Shown here piece after piece: positions 2,754-25,855 of a DNA stretch of 64,000 nt. Location: assembly GCF_003334355.1 (NCBI RefSeq), contig NZ_QOWP01000015.1, one strand, 5' to 3'. Made by a program: the position numbers and the translations under genes. The stretch comes from Escherichia coli (GTDB taxonomy: Bacteria; Pseudomonadota; Gammaproteobacteria; Enterobacterales; Enterobacteriaceae). A model generated the notes under the pieces. It saw only the letters and a list, made by a program, of their open reading frames with translations, searched no databases and had not been told where the DNA came from. Numbering within the stretch: position 1 is the first letter of the stretch; every line of letters starts with the position of its first letter.

Positions 2754-4081
2754 GCCAGTTTCAGATCCCGGGTCATGTTTTCCACGTTGTTTTCGTGGAT
2801 CACCACGTTGTCTTCGATACGAATGCCGCCGAACGGTTTCAGTGCTTCAATTTTCTGCCAGTTGAAGTGCTTGCTGAACTGCCCTTCACGCCACGGTGCC
2901 AGTAGCGATTCGATGAAGTAGATACCCGGTTCGATGGTTAACACCATGCCCGGCTGGAGAATACGGGTGCAGCGCAGGTACGGATATTTTGCCGGTGCCG
3001 CGAGGTGCGTACCGCTATCATCCTGCATAAAACCAGCGACGTCATGCACCTGCAGGCCCAGCGGATGGCCGATACCATGCGGCATAAACGGCCCGGTAAG
3101 ATCGTTTTCGACCATCGCTTCTTCACTCATATCGGTGATGATTTGATGTTTACGCAGCAGTTTGGCGATGCGCTGATGGAACTGGATGTGGTAATCCACA
3201 TAGCTGACGCCTGCTTTCATGGTGGCGATCAGCGCCAGTTGTTCATCATTAACGTCCTTCACCAGCTGCGCGTAGTCGTTGTCACTTTTTGCCGACCAGG
3301 TACGGGTCAGGTCAGCCGCATAGCCGTTATATTCTGCCCCGGCATCCAGCAGGAAGCTGCGCATCTCTTCCGGTGCCTGATGGTCCAGTTTGGTGTAATG
3401 CAGTACCGCAGCGTGTTCGTTAAGCGCCACAATGTTGCTGTAAGGTACGTCGGTATCACGATGACCGGTCGCGGTCAGATAGGCAATGTTGATATCGAAC
3501 TCGCTCATGCCAGAACGGAACGCTTCTTCTGCCGCGCGGTGACCGTTGACCGCCATTTTCTGCGCTTCACGCATACAGGCCAGTTCGTACTCAGTTTTGA
3601 AGGAGCGATAGTAATGCAGGTAGTCGATAACCCCTTTCGGGTTGATGTTGCTGGCCTCAATACCCAGTTGCAGCGCACGTTCCGGCACCGGACCGATATA
3701 ACCGATATTGCCGCGCGCAGCAGGCAGCAGGCTACCAATGCCATCGGCTTTCGGCAGCGCGATCACTTCCACATCTTCAGTCCAGAAAGAGGTCGGCAGC
3801 GGTTCGACGTTGTGCCAGTAATCAACCGGCAGATAGAACCACAGTTTCGGCTTGTTCACGCCATCCACCAGCAACCAGCAGTTTGGCACCTGAGTTACCG
3901 GCACCCACGCTTTGAATTGCGGGTTCACTTTAAACGGATAGGGATGATCGTCGAGAAAAACATTGAACAGCTCGCCGGAGTGAATAAGTAACGCATCCAG
4001 CTTGAAGCGCGCCAGCGCATCGCGAGTCCGTTCTTGTAAGGTAGCTATATGATTTTTATAGAGCGAGGCCAGTGATTCCAT
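2750..4081 (-). CDS. pepQ: Xaa-Pro dipeptidase (prolidase) PepQ
   Basis: 443-aa ORF recognised as PepQ (M24 metallopeptidase, HGIGH motif); divergent from fadB. Confidence 0.95.
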
Positions 4082-4228
4082 TTTTTACCCTTCTGTTTTT
4101 TTGACCTTAAGTCTCCGCATCTTAGCACATCGTTCATCCAGAGCGTGATTTCTGCCGAGCGTGATCAGATCGGCATTTCTTTAATCTTTTGTTTGCATAT
4201 TTTTAACACAAAATACACACTTCGACTC

Positions 4229-19831: not shown

Positions 19832-22091
19832 ACCCCCGACGCAAGTTCTGCGCCGCCTGCACCATGTTCGCCAGTGCCGCGCGGGTTTCTGGCCAGCCGC
19901 GCGTTTTCAGGCCACAGTCCGGGTTGACCCACAGGCGCTCTGCCGGAATGCGTTTTGCCGCTTTCTTCAGCAAGGCTTCAATCCATTCCACGCTCGGTAC
20001 GTTTGGCGAGTGAATGTCATAGACGCCAGGACCGATTTCATTTGGATAATCAAACTCTTCAAACGACTCCAGCAACTCCATGTCGGAACGCGAGGTTTCG
20101 ATGGTGATGACGTCTGCGTCCAGCGCCGCAATCGAATCCATGATGTCGTTGAACTCGCAATAACACATGTGAGTGTGGATTTGTGTGTCATCTTTCGCCA
20201 CGGCGGCGTTGATACGGAAGGCCTCTACGCCCCACTGGAGATACGCATCCCAGTCGCTACGACGCAGCGGTAAACCTTCGCGCAGCGCCGGTTCGTCAAT
20301 CTGGATGATGCCAATTCCAGCGGCTTCCAGATCGGCCACTTCATCACGCAGCGCCAGCGCAATCTGTTTGGCGATGGTTTCACGGCTGACATCTTCACGC
20401 GGGAACGACCAGCAGAGTATGGTCACCGGCCCCGTCAGCATCCCTTTCACCGGTTTGTCGGTCAGCGATTGCGCATACTTCGCCCACTCCACGGTAATCG
20501 GTGCCGGGCGGCTAATGTCACCAATGACAATCGGTGGCTTCACGCAGCGGGAACCGTAGCTCTGTACCCAACCGTTTTGCGTAAAGACAAATCCGTCGAG
20601 GTGCTCGCCAAAGTATTCCACCATGTCATTACGCTCGGCCTCGCCATGTACCAGCACATCCAGTCCCAAACGTTCCTGCTCAACAATGGCCTGCTTGATA
20701 TGTTCCGCAATGCCCGTGCGGTAGTTGTTGGCGTCGAGATTGCCCTTTTTGAAATCCAGACGCAGGGTACGAATTTCCGTGGTTTGCGGGAAGGAACCAA
20801 TCGTGGTGGTCGGCCACGCTGGCAGTTTAAAACGCGCACGCTGGGCTTCAGCACGCACTTCATAGACATTCGCACGCTGGCTGTCCTGGGCGGTGATCGC
20901 CGCCAGACGCTTTTCTACCGCCGGATTATGTACGCGGGTAGAGTGACGACGTGCCTGAATCGGGGCGCTCCACTCTGCCAGAGCTGCCGTGTCACCACTG
21001 TTCAGCGCATCGCGCAGCAGTGCCAGTTCATGGCATTTTTGTAGGGCGAAGGCAAACCAGCTTTTCACTTCTGCATCAAGACGCGTTTCCACGCTCAGGT
21101 CGATGGGGCTGTGCAGCAACGAGCAGGAAGATGCCACCCACAAATCACGTTTGCCGACAATGTCCTTAATTTGCGCATATTTCTCGGTAAGATCGGCGCG
21201 CCAGACGTTACGACCATTGATCAGACCCGCAGACAGCAACCAGTCAGAAGGCAGGCGCTTGTGCAGTTCAGCAACGTCATCTTTACCATGTACGAGGTCA
21301 ACATGCAGACCCTGAACAGGCAGCGCAGTAATCGTGTCGAGATTTGGCGTTACGCCTTCAAAATAGGTGGTCAGCAGCAGTTTCACCTGTCCCTGGAGCG
21401 CGTCGTAAGCGGGTTTGTATGCGTCCAGCCACGCCTGTGGTAGTTCCAGTACCAGCGCGGGTTCATCAATCTGTACCCACTCGATGCCGCGTTTCGCCAG
21501 TTCTGCCAGCACTTGCTGATAAACCGGCAGAATGTCGTTCAGCAGGCTAAGGCGGTCAAACTGTTCACCTTTCACTTTCCCCAGCCACAGGTAAGTAACC
21601 GGCCCCAGCAGCACAGGCTTAACGTTGTGGCCCAGCGCCAGCGCCTCGTCCACTTCCTCCAGCAGCTGCGTCCAGGTCAGTTTGAACTGTTGGCCTTTAA
21701 CGAACTCCGGCACCATGTAGTGATAGTTGGTGTTAAACCATTTGGTCATTTCCGCTGCCGCCGCAGGTTCGCCAGTCGGCGCACGTCCACGACCAATACG
21801 GAACAGGGTGTCGATATCTACCGAACCGTCTTTGTTCTGATGACGTGGCGGAACATTACCCAGCAGCAAACTGGTGGTCAGTACATGATCGTACCAGGCA
21901 AAATCGCCCACCGGCAGCAGGTCGATACCCGCTTGCTTTTGTTGATCCCAGTGACGAGCACGCAGTTCACGCCCTACTGTCAGCAGTTCTTCACGCATGG
22001 AGTTCCCCGCCCAATAACTTTCTTGCGCTTTTTTCAGCTCGCGACGCAGGCCAACGCGAGGGAAACCGAGGGTGTGATTAAGAATTGTCAT
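19830..22091 (-). CDS. metE: Cobalamin-independent methionine synthase MetE
   Basis: 753-aa ORF recognised as MetE. Confidence 0.96.
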
Positions 22092-22121
22092 TATATGCCC
22101 CTTATGGAATTTTTAGTATTT

Positions 22122-22145
22122 AGCCGTCCAGATGTTTACACATCC
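22122..22145. promoter_or_regulatory. Candidate MetJ operator (three tandem met-box-like octamers)
   Basis: agccgtcc-agatgttt-acacatcc, each 5-6/8 matches to AGACGTCT, in the metE-metR divergent promoter region. Confidence 0.4.
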
Positions 22146-22196
22146 ATAATTGGCGGTTACTGTATATTCCTCAAGCGCAAATTATTCATGCCGAAG

Positions 22197-22209
22197 TGAA
22201 GGACTTTCA
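22197..22209. promoter_or_regulatory. Candidate MetR binding site (TGAA-N5-TTCA)
   Basis: TGAAggactTTCA immediately abutting the metR start codon. Confidence 0.35.
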
Positions 22210-23162
22210 TGATCGAAGTAAAACACCTGAAAACGCTACAAGCGTTGCGGAACTGCGGCTCTCTCGCAGCCGCTGCGGCGACGTTGCATCAGACGCAATC
22301 CGCCCTGTCTCACCAGTTTAGCGATCTGGAACAACGCCTTGGCTTCCGGCTATTTGTGCGTAAGAGCCAGCCGCTACGCTTTACACCGCAGGGAGAAATC
22401 CTGTTGCAACTGGCAAACCAGGTGCTGCCGCAAATCAGCCAGGCACTGCAAGCCTGCAATGAACCGCAGCAGACGCGTCTGCGCATTGCCATTGAGTGCC
22501 ATAGCTGTATTCAGTGGCTGACGCCCGCGTTAGAAAATTTCCATAAGAACTGGCCGCAGGTAGAGATGGATTTTAAATCGGGCGTGACGTTTGACCCGCA
22601 GCCCGCGTTGCAACAGGGCGAGCTGGATCTGGTGATGACCTCCGATATCCTGCCGCGCAGTGGCCTGCATTATTCGCCGATGTTCGACTATGAAGTGCGT
22701 CTGGTGTTAGCACCTGACCATCCACTGGCGGCGAAAACGCGAATTACACCGGAAGATCTCGCCAGCGAGACGCTGTTGATTTATCCGGTACAGCGTAGTC
22801 GACTGGATGTCTGGCGGCATTTTCTTCAGCCGGCAGGCGTCAGCCCGTCACTGAAAAGCGTCGATAACACCTTATTGTTGATTCAGATGGTTGCCGCACG
22901 GATGGGTATTGCCGCGCTACCGCATTGGGTAGTAGAGAGTTTTGAGCGCCAGGGTCTGGTGGTGACCAAAACCCTGGGCGAAGGCTTGTGGAGCCGACTG
23001 TACGCCGCCGTGCGCGATGGAGAGCAGCGTCAGCCAGTTACGGAAGCGTTTATTCGCTCAGCGCGCAATCACGCCTGCGATCATCTGCCGTTTGTGAAGA
23101 GCGCGGAGCGACCCACTTACGATGCACCCACAGTGAGGCCAGGATCACCAGCGCGCCTGTAA
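22209..23162 (+). CDS. metR: LysR-family transcriptional regulator MetR
   Basis: 317-aa ORF with N-terminal HTH recognised as MetR. Confidence 0.95.
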
Positions 23163-23949
23163 TGAACGTTGGCCAGTGCGGCTGTTGGTGCCAGATAGCC
23201 AGGTTTACCAGCAGCCCTGCCGGAACGTGCATATTATTCATAATGCCCAGCGTTCCGGCGTCCACCTGCGTCGCGCCGTAGTTCCACATAAAGTAGCCAA
23301 TCCCGGAAGCCACCACGCCAAGAAACACCAGAATGCCCCATTGCAACGTGGTTTGCGGCATTTTCTGCGTATTTCCCAGCAAGAACCATGCAATTACCGC
23401 CACCAGGAACGCGCCAAGATAGAACCACGCAAAGGCGTTATGCTGCGGCATCGGGCGAGTTTCCATCAGGCGTTTGTAACCCACCATGCCGATGGCAAAA
23501 GTGATATTGGAGAGTTGCACCAGCAACAAGCCAGTCCAGAAATGGTCGGTGACCTGATCATAGCGAATAATCCCGGCACCAATCACCGCCAACAAGGCAC
23601 TAAAAGCATATCCCCAGCGCAGACGGCGCTTACTCATGATGTCATAAATCAGCGTGATGTAGAGCGGCGTCAGTACGGTGAACAGCAGCAGTTCGGAAAC
23701 CGTCAGGTAGAGATAAGCGCGGAAACTCAGCATATACATCACGCCGAGCTGCATCGCGCCCACCAGCATATACAGGCCGACTGTTTTCAGGCTATTGCCA
23801 CGGGTACGCAGAAACGGCAGAAAAACGAGTGCCGCCAGGCCAACGCGCACCAGCACCGCAAAATAGCTATCGACGTGCCCCGCAAGGTACTCGCCATAAA
23901 AGCTAAAGGAGAAGGCCCACAGAATCGTGGTGATGATAAGTAGCGCCAC
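23050..23949 (-). CDS. yigM: EamA/DMT-family inner membrane transporter YigM (biotin uptake, BioP)
   Basis: 299-aa polytopic membrane ORF recognised as YigM; 3' end overlaps the metR 3' end convergently. Confidence 0.88.
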
Positions 23950-24024
23950 AATGGAAAACTCTTTGATTAACGGGTATCCATTGTAGCGAAGTATCAGGTT
24001 GACAACTGACCAAATAAAGAACGA

Positions 24025-24825
24025 TTACGATAAATAGAGTTTACGCAGATAATGCGGCACCGCGTCGTCGGCATTAGTACCAATCACTTCCAGCTCGGGA
24101 TGAAGGTCTTTCAGACGCTGGTGCGCACTGCCCATAATGCAGCCTTTCCCCGCCATCGACAGCATTTCGGCGTCGTTCATCCCGTCACCAAACGCAATAC
24201 AATCCTTCAGGCTGTAGCCCAGTTTCTTCGCCACCGCTTCCAGCGCATGGCCTTTTGAAACGCCGCCCGCCATCACTTCCAGACAGGTTAAGGTAGAGAA
24301 ACTGACGTTGACGCGATCGCCCCAACGAGCGTTAATCGCCTGCTCCAGCGGCAGCAGTTGTTCATGGGAATCGCAGGTGAAGAACACTTTGCTGACGCCT
24401 TCCGGCTCCAGTAATCCAGGCTCATACAGCGCATATTGGAACACCGCTTCTTTAAAAAAGCGCATCTCTTCCGGGCGATGGCGATTCATAAACCATTCGT
24501 CGTCGCGATAAACGTTAGTAATGATGTCCGGATTGTCGTTGACTACGCCAAACAGATCGCTGGCAATGTCGCGATCCAGGTTATGAGCAAAAATCAGATT
24601 ACCATCCAGATCGTGAACGCGCGCACCATTGGAGGTAATCATGTAAGACTTAATCTCCAGATTATCGCGAATTTGCCCCACATCAACGTGGTGACGACCG
24701 GTCGCAAACACAAAGTTGATGCCGCGCGCGGTGAGCAGCTTCAGAGTTTCTTTGGCGTAAGGGGATAACGTATGGTCGGGAGAAAGTAACGTGCCATCTA
24801 AATCAGACGCAACAACCTGGTACAT
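24025..24825 (-). CDS. yigL: HAD-superfamily (Cof-type) sugar-phosphate phosphatase YigL
   Basis: Track ORF runs into pldB; recognised 266-aa YigL begins MYQVVASDLDGTLL at ATG 24825, 7 bp below the pldB stop. Confidence 0.9.
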   Translation of the reverse strand: MYQVVASDLDGTLLSPDHTLSPYAKETLKLLTARGINFVFATGRHHVDVGQIRDNLEIKSYMITSNGARVHDLDGNLIFAHNLDRDIASDLFGVVNDNPDIITNVYRDDEWFMNRHRPEEMRFFKEAVFQYALYEPGLLEPEGVSKVFFTCDSHEQLLPLEQAINARWGDRVNVSFSTLTCLEVMAGGVSKGHALEAVAKKLGYSLKDCIAFGDGMNDAEMLSMAGKGCIMGSAHQRLKDLHPELEVIGTNADDAVPHYLRKLYLS

Positions 24826-24832
24826 AAGAAAT

Positions 24833-25855
24833 TTAAACCTCTGTAGAGCGGTTTCCGCTGGGTGAGTTATGCCTGTTGAAAAAATCAACGATGGCGTGGA
24901 GCGCGACTGAGCGCATTGCGTCCTTTTCAAAAAGGATCTCATGGTAAGCACCTTTAATTACCAACGGCCGTCCTCCTTCGACAGGATGGCCCGCGGCGGT
25001 GCGGAGTTCACAAAAACGGTCATGCATGCGGTTATCCACCACGCGTTCCTCTTCAGCCTGCAAGAGAAGCGTTGGCGTGGCGTCATCACCCGCACCGGCT
25101 AACACCTGTTCGCCAGCCAGAATACTTTCGCGTACCCAATGGTAGGTCGGCCCACCGACGCGAATCGTTGGGTCATCAGCATAGAAGCGTAAGTTACGTC
25201 GATATCGCTGTCTGCTGTGGGTCAGTACGTTGATAGCAAACGGCAACGCGCGCCAGCGCCCGGTGCCTATTGCATAGCCATCACGGAAACGTGGATGCGC
25301 TTCGGCCCAGTTGAGGATCTGCCGTGCCATAAATGACGGCATACGAATCACGATCCCAAACATTGGCGCAGTTAGCGCAATGGCGTCACATACACCTGGA
25401 TGGCGTTGCAGAAATAATGTGGAGATCGCACCGCCCATCGAATGTGCCAGTATATAGCGTTTACGCCACGGACCGGGCTGAACCTCCTGCTGCCAGAATG
25501 CCGCCAGATCATCAACATAATCATTAAAGCGATTAACATGCCCGAGATGCGGATCGGCTAACAGGCGACCGGAACGTCCCTGCCCGCGATGGTCGATGAT
25601 TAAGACATCAAACCCCAAATGGAACAGGTCGTAGGCCAGTTCCGCATATTTTACGTAGCTCTCAATACGCCCCGGGCAGATGACTACCACCCGGTCATGG
25701 TGCTGTGCGCGAAAACGGACAAAGCGCACCGGAATGTCATCCACACCAGTAAACTCTGCTTCATCACGCTGACGCCAGAAATCAGTCAGCGGTCCCAGGG
25801 TAAAAGCAGCAAACGCGTTTTCTCTTGTTTCCCAGTCTTTTTGCTGCTGAAACAT
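24833..25855 (-). CDS. pldB: Lysophospholipase L2
   Basis: 340-aa alpha/beta hydrolase ORF (HSMGG motif) recognised as PldB. Confidence 0.93.
   Translation of the reverse strand: MFQQQKDWETRENAFAAFTLGPLTDFWRQRDEAEFTGVDDIPVRFVRFRAQHHDRVVVICPGRIESYVKYAELAYDLFHLGFDVLIIDHRGQGRSGRLLADPHLGHVNRFNDYVDDLAAFWQQEVQPGPWRKRYILAHSMGGAISTLFLQRHPGVCDAIALTAPMFGIVIRMPSFMARQILNWAEAHPRFRDGYAIGTGRWRALPFAINVLTHSRQRYRRNLRFYADDPTIRVGGPTYHWVRESILAGEQVLAGAGDDATPTLLLQAEEERVVDNRMHDRFCELRTAAGHPVEGGRPLVIKGAYHEILFEKDAMRSVALHAIVDFFNRHNSPSGNRSTEV

Follow-up and report, generated by a model that had tools for sequence, protein, structure and literature searches.

The window, by which we mean the whole stretch of Escherichia coli DNA that was analysed (64,000 nucleotides from contig NZ_QOWP01000015.1 of assembly GCF_003334355.1), carries two convergent genes whose 3' ends occupy the same DNA. 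On the plus strand metR runs from 22209 to 23162 and encodes the LysR-type regulator MetR of 317 amino acids (aa), and on the minus strand yigM, also called bioP, runs from 23050 to 23949 and encodes a biotin transporter of the DMT/EamA family with 299 aa. Both genes were delimited from the list of open reading frames (ORFs), in agreement with RefSeq, and both end in TAA, at 23160-23162 for metR and at 23050-23052 on the minus strand for yigM. MetR scored 741.4 bits against the NCBIfam profile NF011950 (cut-off 382), with residues 1-317 of 317 covered. Its orthologues have both PF00126 and PF03466, that is the HTH and the LysR substrate-binding domain, and PDB 5fo5, found as a structure match, is the DNA-binding domain of E. 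coli MetR. YigM reached 309.8 bits against TIGR00950 (cut-off 230.2), over residues 11-273 only, and its AlphaFold2 model (mean pLDDT 88.5, pTM 0.86) is a helical bundle with the last helix at residues 259-280. Profile score and predicted fold place YigM among the DMT/EamA carboxylate/amino acid/amine transporters with ten membrane helices; RefSeq names the gene 'bioP: biotin transporter', and the function of BioP/YigM in biotin transport is taken from the literature.

According to the ORF list and the codon table the two genes share 113 bp, at 23050-23162 on both strands. The shared segment holds MetR codons 281-317 with the stop and YigM codons 263-299 with the stop, and within it the first codon positions of the two genes face each other, the second position of metR is paired with the third of yigM, and the third of metR with the second of yigM. 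An earlier note on this DNA had described a convergent overlap of about 37 codons in each gene at this place, which was exact by the ORF list, the codon table and RefSeq alike; RefSeq/PGAP has the identical two CDSs, overlapping by 113 bp, in all three strains that were looked at and also in MG1655 (bioP at 4011076-4011975, metR at 4011863-4012816). It had also regarded both ORFs as full-length and the overlap as genuine, and suggested that both C-termini be aligned to orthologues. This view holds, since both C-termini agree with those of orthologues (in Enterobacteriaceae, 317 aa for MetR and 299 aa for YigM throughout) and neither gene has an earlier in-frame stop, and from the absence of such stops we infer that both proteins would be translated through the shared segment. 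The note did not point out that the overlap had already been annotated and published, nor that it consists of weakly constrained tails.

Every one of the 5,426 complete E. coli genomes matches the region from 22100 to 24000 at 95% identity or more, and one strain does so at 100%. In one of the 5,426 (E. coli Z135-6, NZ_CP159632.1, about 3027-4204) about 1.2 kb with a 'hypothetical protein' stands in place of the 3' parts of metR and bioP, and hence of the entire overlap, and the annotation treats the two genes as partial pseudogenes. Some of the mechanically listed ORFs of the neighbourhood deserve a comment. An ORF of 255 aa at 23176-23943 on the plus strand lies antisense within yigM, and several of 60-230 aa lie antisense within metE; they resemble mechanical shadow ORFs, and no evidence for genes was found in either case. 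The mechanical ORF for yigL (24025-24951, minus strand, GTG start, 308 aa) overlaps the 3' end of pldB, and the RefSeq CDS of yigL is 801 nt long and starts at window position 24825, 7 nt past the pldB stop.

Cores, tails and the stop codons

The regulatory domain of Neisseria MetR in PDB 4ab5 aligns to residues 87-296 of E. coli MetR, and the whole Neisseria protein (309 aa) ends two residues beyond the equivalent of E300. In the enterobacterial alignment MetR residues 281-302 are highly conserved and residues 303-317 differ in almost every genus. An AlphaFold2 model of MetR, built on an 18-sequence alignment, had a mean pLDDT of 50 and was unusable, and we therefore placed the end of the core by means of PDB 4ab5 and the Neisseria protein. 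The core of MetR, its regulatory domain, thus extends to about residue 301, and the core of YigM, with its last membrane helix, to about residues 280-282. Over YigM residues 281-299 the AlphaFold2 pLDDT is low, at about 60 and then 47, and distant YigM homologues outside Enterobacterales have tails of 3-20 residues that are not alignable. Projected on the DNA, these ends fall at about 23111-23114 for MetR and at about 23104-23115 for YigM, that is, the two cores abut.

The overlap can accordingly be divided at this point. Segment A (23050-23102) contains the YigM tail, residues 283-299 and the stop, over the conserved C-terminal helix of MetR, residues 281-298. A junction of 12 nt follows (23103-23114), in which A299-E300-R301-P302 of MetR stand opposite W279-V280-A281-P282 of YigM. 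Segment B (23115-23162) contains the variable MetR tail, residues 303-317 and the stop, over the last membrane helix of YigM, residues 263-278. The tail of each protein is encoded antisense to the core of its partner, and the overlap is built from two weakly constrained tails and not from two fully constrained coding segments. The frequency of antisense stops in this phase is about 0.045 per codon in the long ORFs of the window, which gives an open run of 16-20 codons a probability of about 0.4-0.5, and the lengths of the tails are therefore unremarkable. The size of the overlap is what would be expected by chance once the cores abut; what goes beyond chance, judged from the sequences compared, is that the arrangement and the lengths of both ORFs are kept across about 80 species.

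The stop codons are determined by the partner. An antisense stop in this phase arises only where NTT, NTC or NCT stands before a codon whose first base is A, and TTY before such a codon always reads T-(A/G)-A on the opposite strand, which is a stop (TAA or TGA). Read from the sequence, the minus-strand stop of yigM is set in this way by F281-I282 of MetR (TTT ATT, 23049-23054). F281 never varies, and 76 of 77 species have Ile at residue 282, the remaining one having Thr, whose codon still starts with A; the Phe-Ile pair was present in every Enterobacterales locus read. At the other end (23158-23166) F262-I263-T264 of YigM set both the metR stop at 23160-23162 and an in-frame back-up TGA at 23163-23165. 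A primer based on K-12 (Côté et al., Table S1) has TAATAA at the metR stop and the window has TAATGA (23160-23165), so strains differ at 23163-23165, a site that is the wobble position of YigM F262. An earlier stop that is silent in the partner can arise at one site only for each tail. GTT or GTC at MetR V296 cuts YigM to 284 aa if the codon for residue 297 starts with A, as in Kluyvera (L023), and GTT or GTC at YigM V268 before I269 cuts MetR to 312 aa, as read from sequence and codon table in locus L015.

The constancy of the ORF lengths was considered as a sign of selection on the tails and rejected, as both stops are fixed by amino acids of the partner; the ORFs keep their lengths because conserved residues on the other strand set the stops, and the constancy is largely a by-product. 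Shorter forms of YigM do occur, with 278 aa in E. coli (P0526 and P0527, 75 contigs), 284 aa in Kluyvera (P0511) and 285 aa in Salmonella Gaminara and Citrobacter portucalensis (P0515 and P0078). These forms, and a MetR of 311-312 aa that is fixed in some families, suggest that much of each tail is dispensable. The 278-aa BioP of E. coli ends directly after the last membrane helix.

Spread and substitution pattern

The species loci, 80 in number, were taken from the yigM alignment, and together with three E. coli records they make up 83 enterobacterial loci. The overlap is 113 bp long in 73 of the 83, 116 bp in eight and 98 bp in one, and the remaining locus, from Leclercia, is anomalous. In this assembly (Leclercia adecarboxylata NCTC13032, L069) the overlap is nominally 87 bp and the metR match has 52% identity over residues 106-260 only; the odd metR may be due to frameshifts in a long-read assembly or to a damaged gene. 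A first-stop scan of the 77 species that align without gaps gave a MetR of 317 aa in 68, 318 aa in seven and 312 aa in two, and a YigM of 299 aa in 76 and 284 aa in one. Orthologues of MetR with 317 aa are found in Salmonella, Klebsiella, Buttiauxella, Cronobacter, Yersinia and others, and those of Dickeya, Rahnella, Pectobacterium and Brenneria have 311-312 aa.

Outside the family the overlap is 113 bp in Yersinia, 98 bp in Dickeya and 95 bp in both Rahnella and Pectobacterium, and the yigM stop has the identical position inside metR in all four. A more divergent locus (L092, with the YigM P0243, 57% identical) overlaps metR by 98 bp. This YigM has an unaligned internal stretch at about 205-245 that resembles a frameshifted segment in a Logan assembly; its C-terminus and the overlap with metR are intact. 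The YigM homologues of Vibrio and Microbulbifer (about 50% identity, 292-294 aa) have unrelated tails and lie away from metR. Taken together, the overlap is genuine and old, and it appears to be a feature of Enterobacterales, as judged from Enterobacteriaceae and from Yersinia, Dickeya, Rahnella and Pectobacterium.

Substitutions were analysed in the ungapped alignment of 77 species, by parsimony counts on a neighbour-joining tree and not by a full codon model; the tests were stratified by codon degeneracy, with the rest of each gene as baseline, and each test covers only 16-20 codons. Nucleotide diversity peaks at the third positions of metR up to 23111 and at the third positions of yigM from 23115 on, with a sharp flip at about 23112. 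The third positions of metR have 13.85 changes per site where metR is alone against 6.80 under the YigM tail, and those of yigM 15.13 where yigM is alone against 11.69 under the MetR tail. The second positions of the two cores have 0.92 and 1.03 changes per site; those of the tails change about 7 times (YigM tail) and about 13 times (MetR tail) faster than this, and slower than free wobble positions.

Relative to expectation, the third positions of MetR codons 282-301 have 0.48 of the changes, below all 262 sliding windows elsewhere in metR, and those of MetR codons 283-298, under the distal YigM tail, 0.60 (P=0.0004). For YigM codons 264-279 the figure is 0.77 (P ~0.03), and the diversity (pi) at the third positions of yigM, which are second positions of MetR, is 0.402 in Segment B against 0.419 in the part with yigM alone. 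The junction is the most constrained part, with 0, 1, 0 and 0 changes at the third positions of MetR codons 299-302 in 77 species, where about 15 per site were expected (ratio 0.02). The codon for MetR R301 is CGA, a rare codon for arginine, and its third base is fixed in all 77 species, though two of these have Gln (CAA) at residue 301; a common arginine codon at this site would turn V280 of YigM into Asp or Gly. Purifying selection was thus found in both frames of the shared segment, its part in the MetR tail being weak, at the P of about 0.03 given above. The signature of dual coding is real by these counts, with a strong signal at the junction, a moderate one in the YigM tail and a weak one in the MetR tail, and the reduced wobble change under the tails may reflect only slight selection.

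Transcription, termination and published genetics

There is no intergenic DNA between the two genes, and each mRNA therefore extends into the other gene. As each mRNA must contain its own stop codon, the two have at least 113 nt of complementary sequence, which bears out the expectation of the earlier note that transcription converges through both 3' ends. The antisense interference that the note named as potential is, by the sources read, still no more than potential. The published RNA-seq map points the same way, as bioP-metR was listed from RNA-seq coverage among 165 convergent excludons of MG1655 (ExcludonFinder, 2025 NAR, PMC12288877).

A scan for intrinsic terminators over 22000-24100 gave one weak site, in metR at 22763, which is below the count in shuffled sequences, and none near the overlap, and no Rfam match at E<=1 was obtained over 21500-25000. 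For the yigM strand a region of Rho termination has been published (Adams et al. 2021, PMC7815308), at MG1655 position 4011704, which converts to about 23321 on the minus strand of the window via the bioP coordinates. In Supplementary file 2 of that study it is classed as 'internal' to yigM, with a Rho score of 5.07 (P=1.3e-12), and read-through rises five-fold with bicyclomycin, at the coarse resolution of 800-nt flanking windows. The best Rho coordinate is thus inside yigM and upstream of the overlap, nothing is reported there for the metR strand, and the Term-seq table of the same paper has no 3' ends at 40116xx-40121xx. Rho appears to limit read-through on the yigM strand. The RNA 3' of both stops is modestly C-rich (C:G ratio 1.35-1.76 over about 160-240 nt); we did not count this as a specific Rho site, as it is expected for RNA that is antisense of coding sequence. 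A hairpin in the 3' extension of metR (23219-23227 and 23251-23259) was rejected as well, the wobble positions of its arms varying freely and without compensation.

Genetic work on K-12 has already met the overlap. Côté et al. (2016, mBio, PMC5120140) stated that yigM overlaps metR substantially, found that loss of metR, like loss of yigM, is synthetic lethal with bioA and makes the strain sensitive to a BioA inhibitor, and ascribed this phenotype to disruption of yigM. According to their primer table the metR deletion keeps only the last six metR codons, so that 23050-23141 and with it the codons for YigM residues 270-299 are lost, and the yigM deletion was designed to end at 23184 and to spare metR. 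From this phenotype we infer that YigM residues 270-299 are translated. The overlap is in other words known and not new, being annotated in RefSeq (b3827/b3828) and published both by Côté et al. in 2016 and with ExcludonFinder in 2025.

Interpretation and comparison with known overlaps

The overlap is genuine, conserved and mechanistically ordinary, and we consider it very probable that two unrelated, functional genes have long overlapped here tail to tail in their coding sequence, with the tails lying over abutting cores. The conserved cores of MetR and YigM meet on the DNA with no spacer between them, probably after loss of a spacer and of the ancestral stops, and each frame runs on beyond its own core, antisense to that of the partner, as far as the stop that a conserved Phe-Ile dipeptide of the partner fixes. 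The outcome is C-terminal tails of 15 residues in MetR (303-317) and 17 in YigM (283-299), presumably translated because no stop precedes them and weakly constrained, and a junction of 12 nt that serves both proteins under strong constraint. Termination would most likely depend on Rho once the ribosomes leave at the stops, which is put forward here for both directions and for the metR strand purely by reasoning.

That one of the proteins really ends earlier, and that the overlap is an artefact of annotation or sequencing, is extremely improbable. An early Salmonella MetR sequence was reportedly shorter. It is also true that annotated overlaps of more than 60 bp are mostly misannotations, among them 124 of 178 convergent ones (PMC2478687), but the stops are not predictions, neither gene has an earlier one in frame, and the identical sequence is found in thousands of genomes. 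Of 77 species, 75 have a MetR of 317-318 aa and 76 a YigM of 299 aa, and when the shared DNA is deleted from the metR side the function of YigM is lost (PMC5120140). Somewhat less far-fetched, but still very unlikely, is that the extra constraint at 23050-23114 reflects a terminator, a stabilising hairpin or some other RNA element of one of the two mRNAs rather than coding in two frames. An 11-nt inverted repeat at 23054-23064 and 23101-23111 is 91% complementary and takes part in the minimum-energy folds of both strands, but the fold energies are like those of shuffled sequences (z = 0.16 and -0.71), 12-17 of 77 species have disrupted pairs with no compensating change, and covariation is essentially absent. 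The repeat has neither a T-run behind it nor an Rfam match, and the invariant sites are second codon positions of YigM, and we therefore rejected the hairpin.

A further idea, to which we would give only a small chance, is that selection has kept the overlap as a regulatory device, namely a convergent excludon in which transcription of metR and bioP interferes and the coupling explains the conservation. The route would be collision of polymerases or RNase III cleavage of a duplex of at least 113 bp, with metR being repressed by MetJ-SAM and autoregulated. SAM is consumed in biotin synthesis, and a link between SAM and biotin is conceivable. The place of bioP-metR among the MG1655 excludons, the arrangement kept across Enterobacterales and the absence of a separating terminator are all compatible with such a device. 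Against it, we found no report in the literature that expression of metR or bioP depends on transcription of the partner; metR, yigM and bioP are not named in the supplement on p19 dsRNA capture, an absence that is no proof against a duplex; and the read-through on the yigM strand appears to be limited by Rho (PMC7815308). The expected direction, with low SAM giving more metR and less bioP, is not obviously useful, and the conservation has a simpler account, in that abutted cores can be separated only by duplication or insertion and both stops are fixed by conserved residues. We hold it equally doubtful that the locus has been kept without spacer and terminator as a switch between the SAM-responsive metR promoter and the pldB-yigL-bioP side. 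If it were so, each side would control the output of the other through polymerase collision, Rho access or RNase III, and biotin uptake would be tied to methionine and SAM throughout Enterobacterales; in the same manner, an overlap of the transcripts that turned out to be regulatory would link SAM status to vitamin uptake.

Returning to the coding overlap of two tails, which we prefer, its practical consequence is that any deletion, insertion or recoding within 23050-23162 affects both methionine regulation and biotin uptake, which are unrelated functions, and the misleading synthetic lethality of metR and bioA (PMC5120140) is a case that it has already produced. The locus is also a clean and conserved example of a long convergent overlap, with low-constraint tails over high-constraint cores, and this arrangement, together with stops that are fixed by the partner, makes it useful as a benchmark for the detection of dual coding.

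As an object the overlap does not differ from the one published for metR/bioP of E. coli K-12, which is the identical locus with the identical 113 bp. What we add is modest detail on its comparative anatomy, that is the way in which tails overlie cores, the junction of 12 nt, the fixing of each stop by the partner's Phe-Ile and the spread in Enterobacterales. With the long convergent overlaps described by Rogozin et al. (2002) and Pallejà et al. (2008) it shares the tail-to-tail orientation, a length above 60 bp, two well-characterised genes and ORF lengths consistent with orthologues. By these criteria Pallejà et al. accepted 54 of 178 convergent overlaps of more than 60 bp as possibly real (PMC2478687), a small class of long overlaps to which metR/bioP belongs, and metR/bioP was not found by name in their supplement; the accepted cases are mostly kept in very close species, whereas metR/bioP is kept across several families of Enterobacterales. 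Overprinted antisense genes such as mbiA/htgA in yaaW and laoB in a CadC-like gene are likewise coding on both strands, but in those an entire novel ORF is contained within an older gene, and in metR/bioP no new gene has been formed and only the last 15-17 residues of each protein are antisense to the other.
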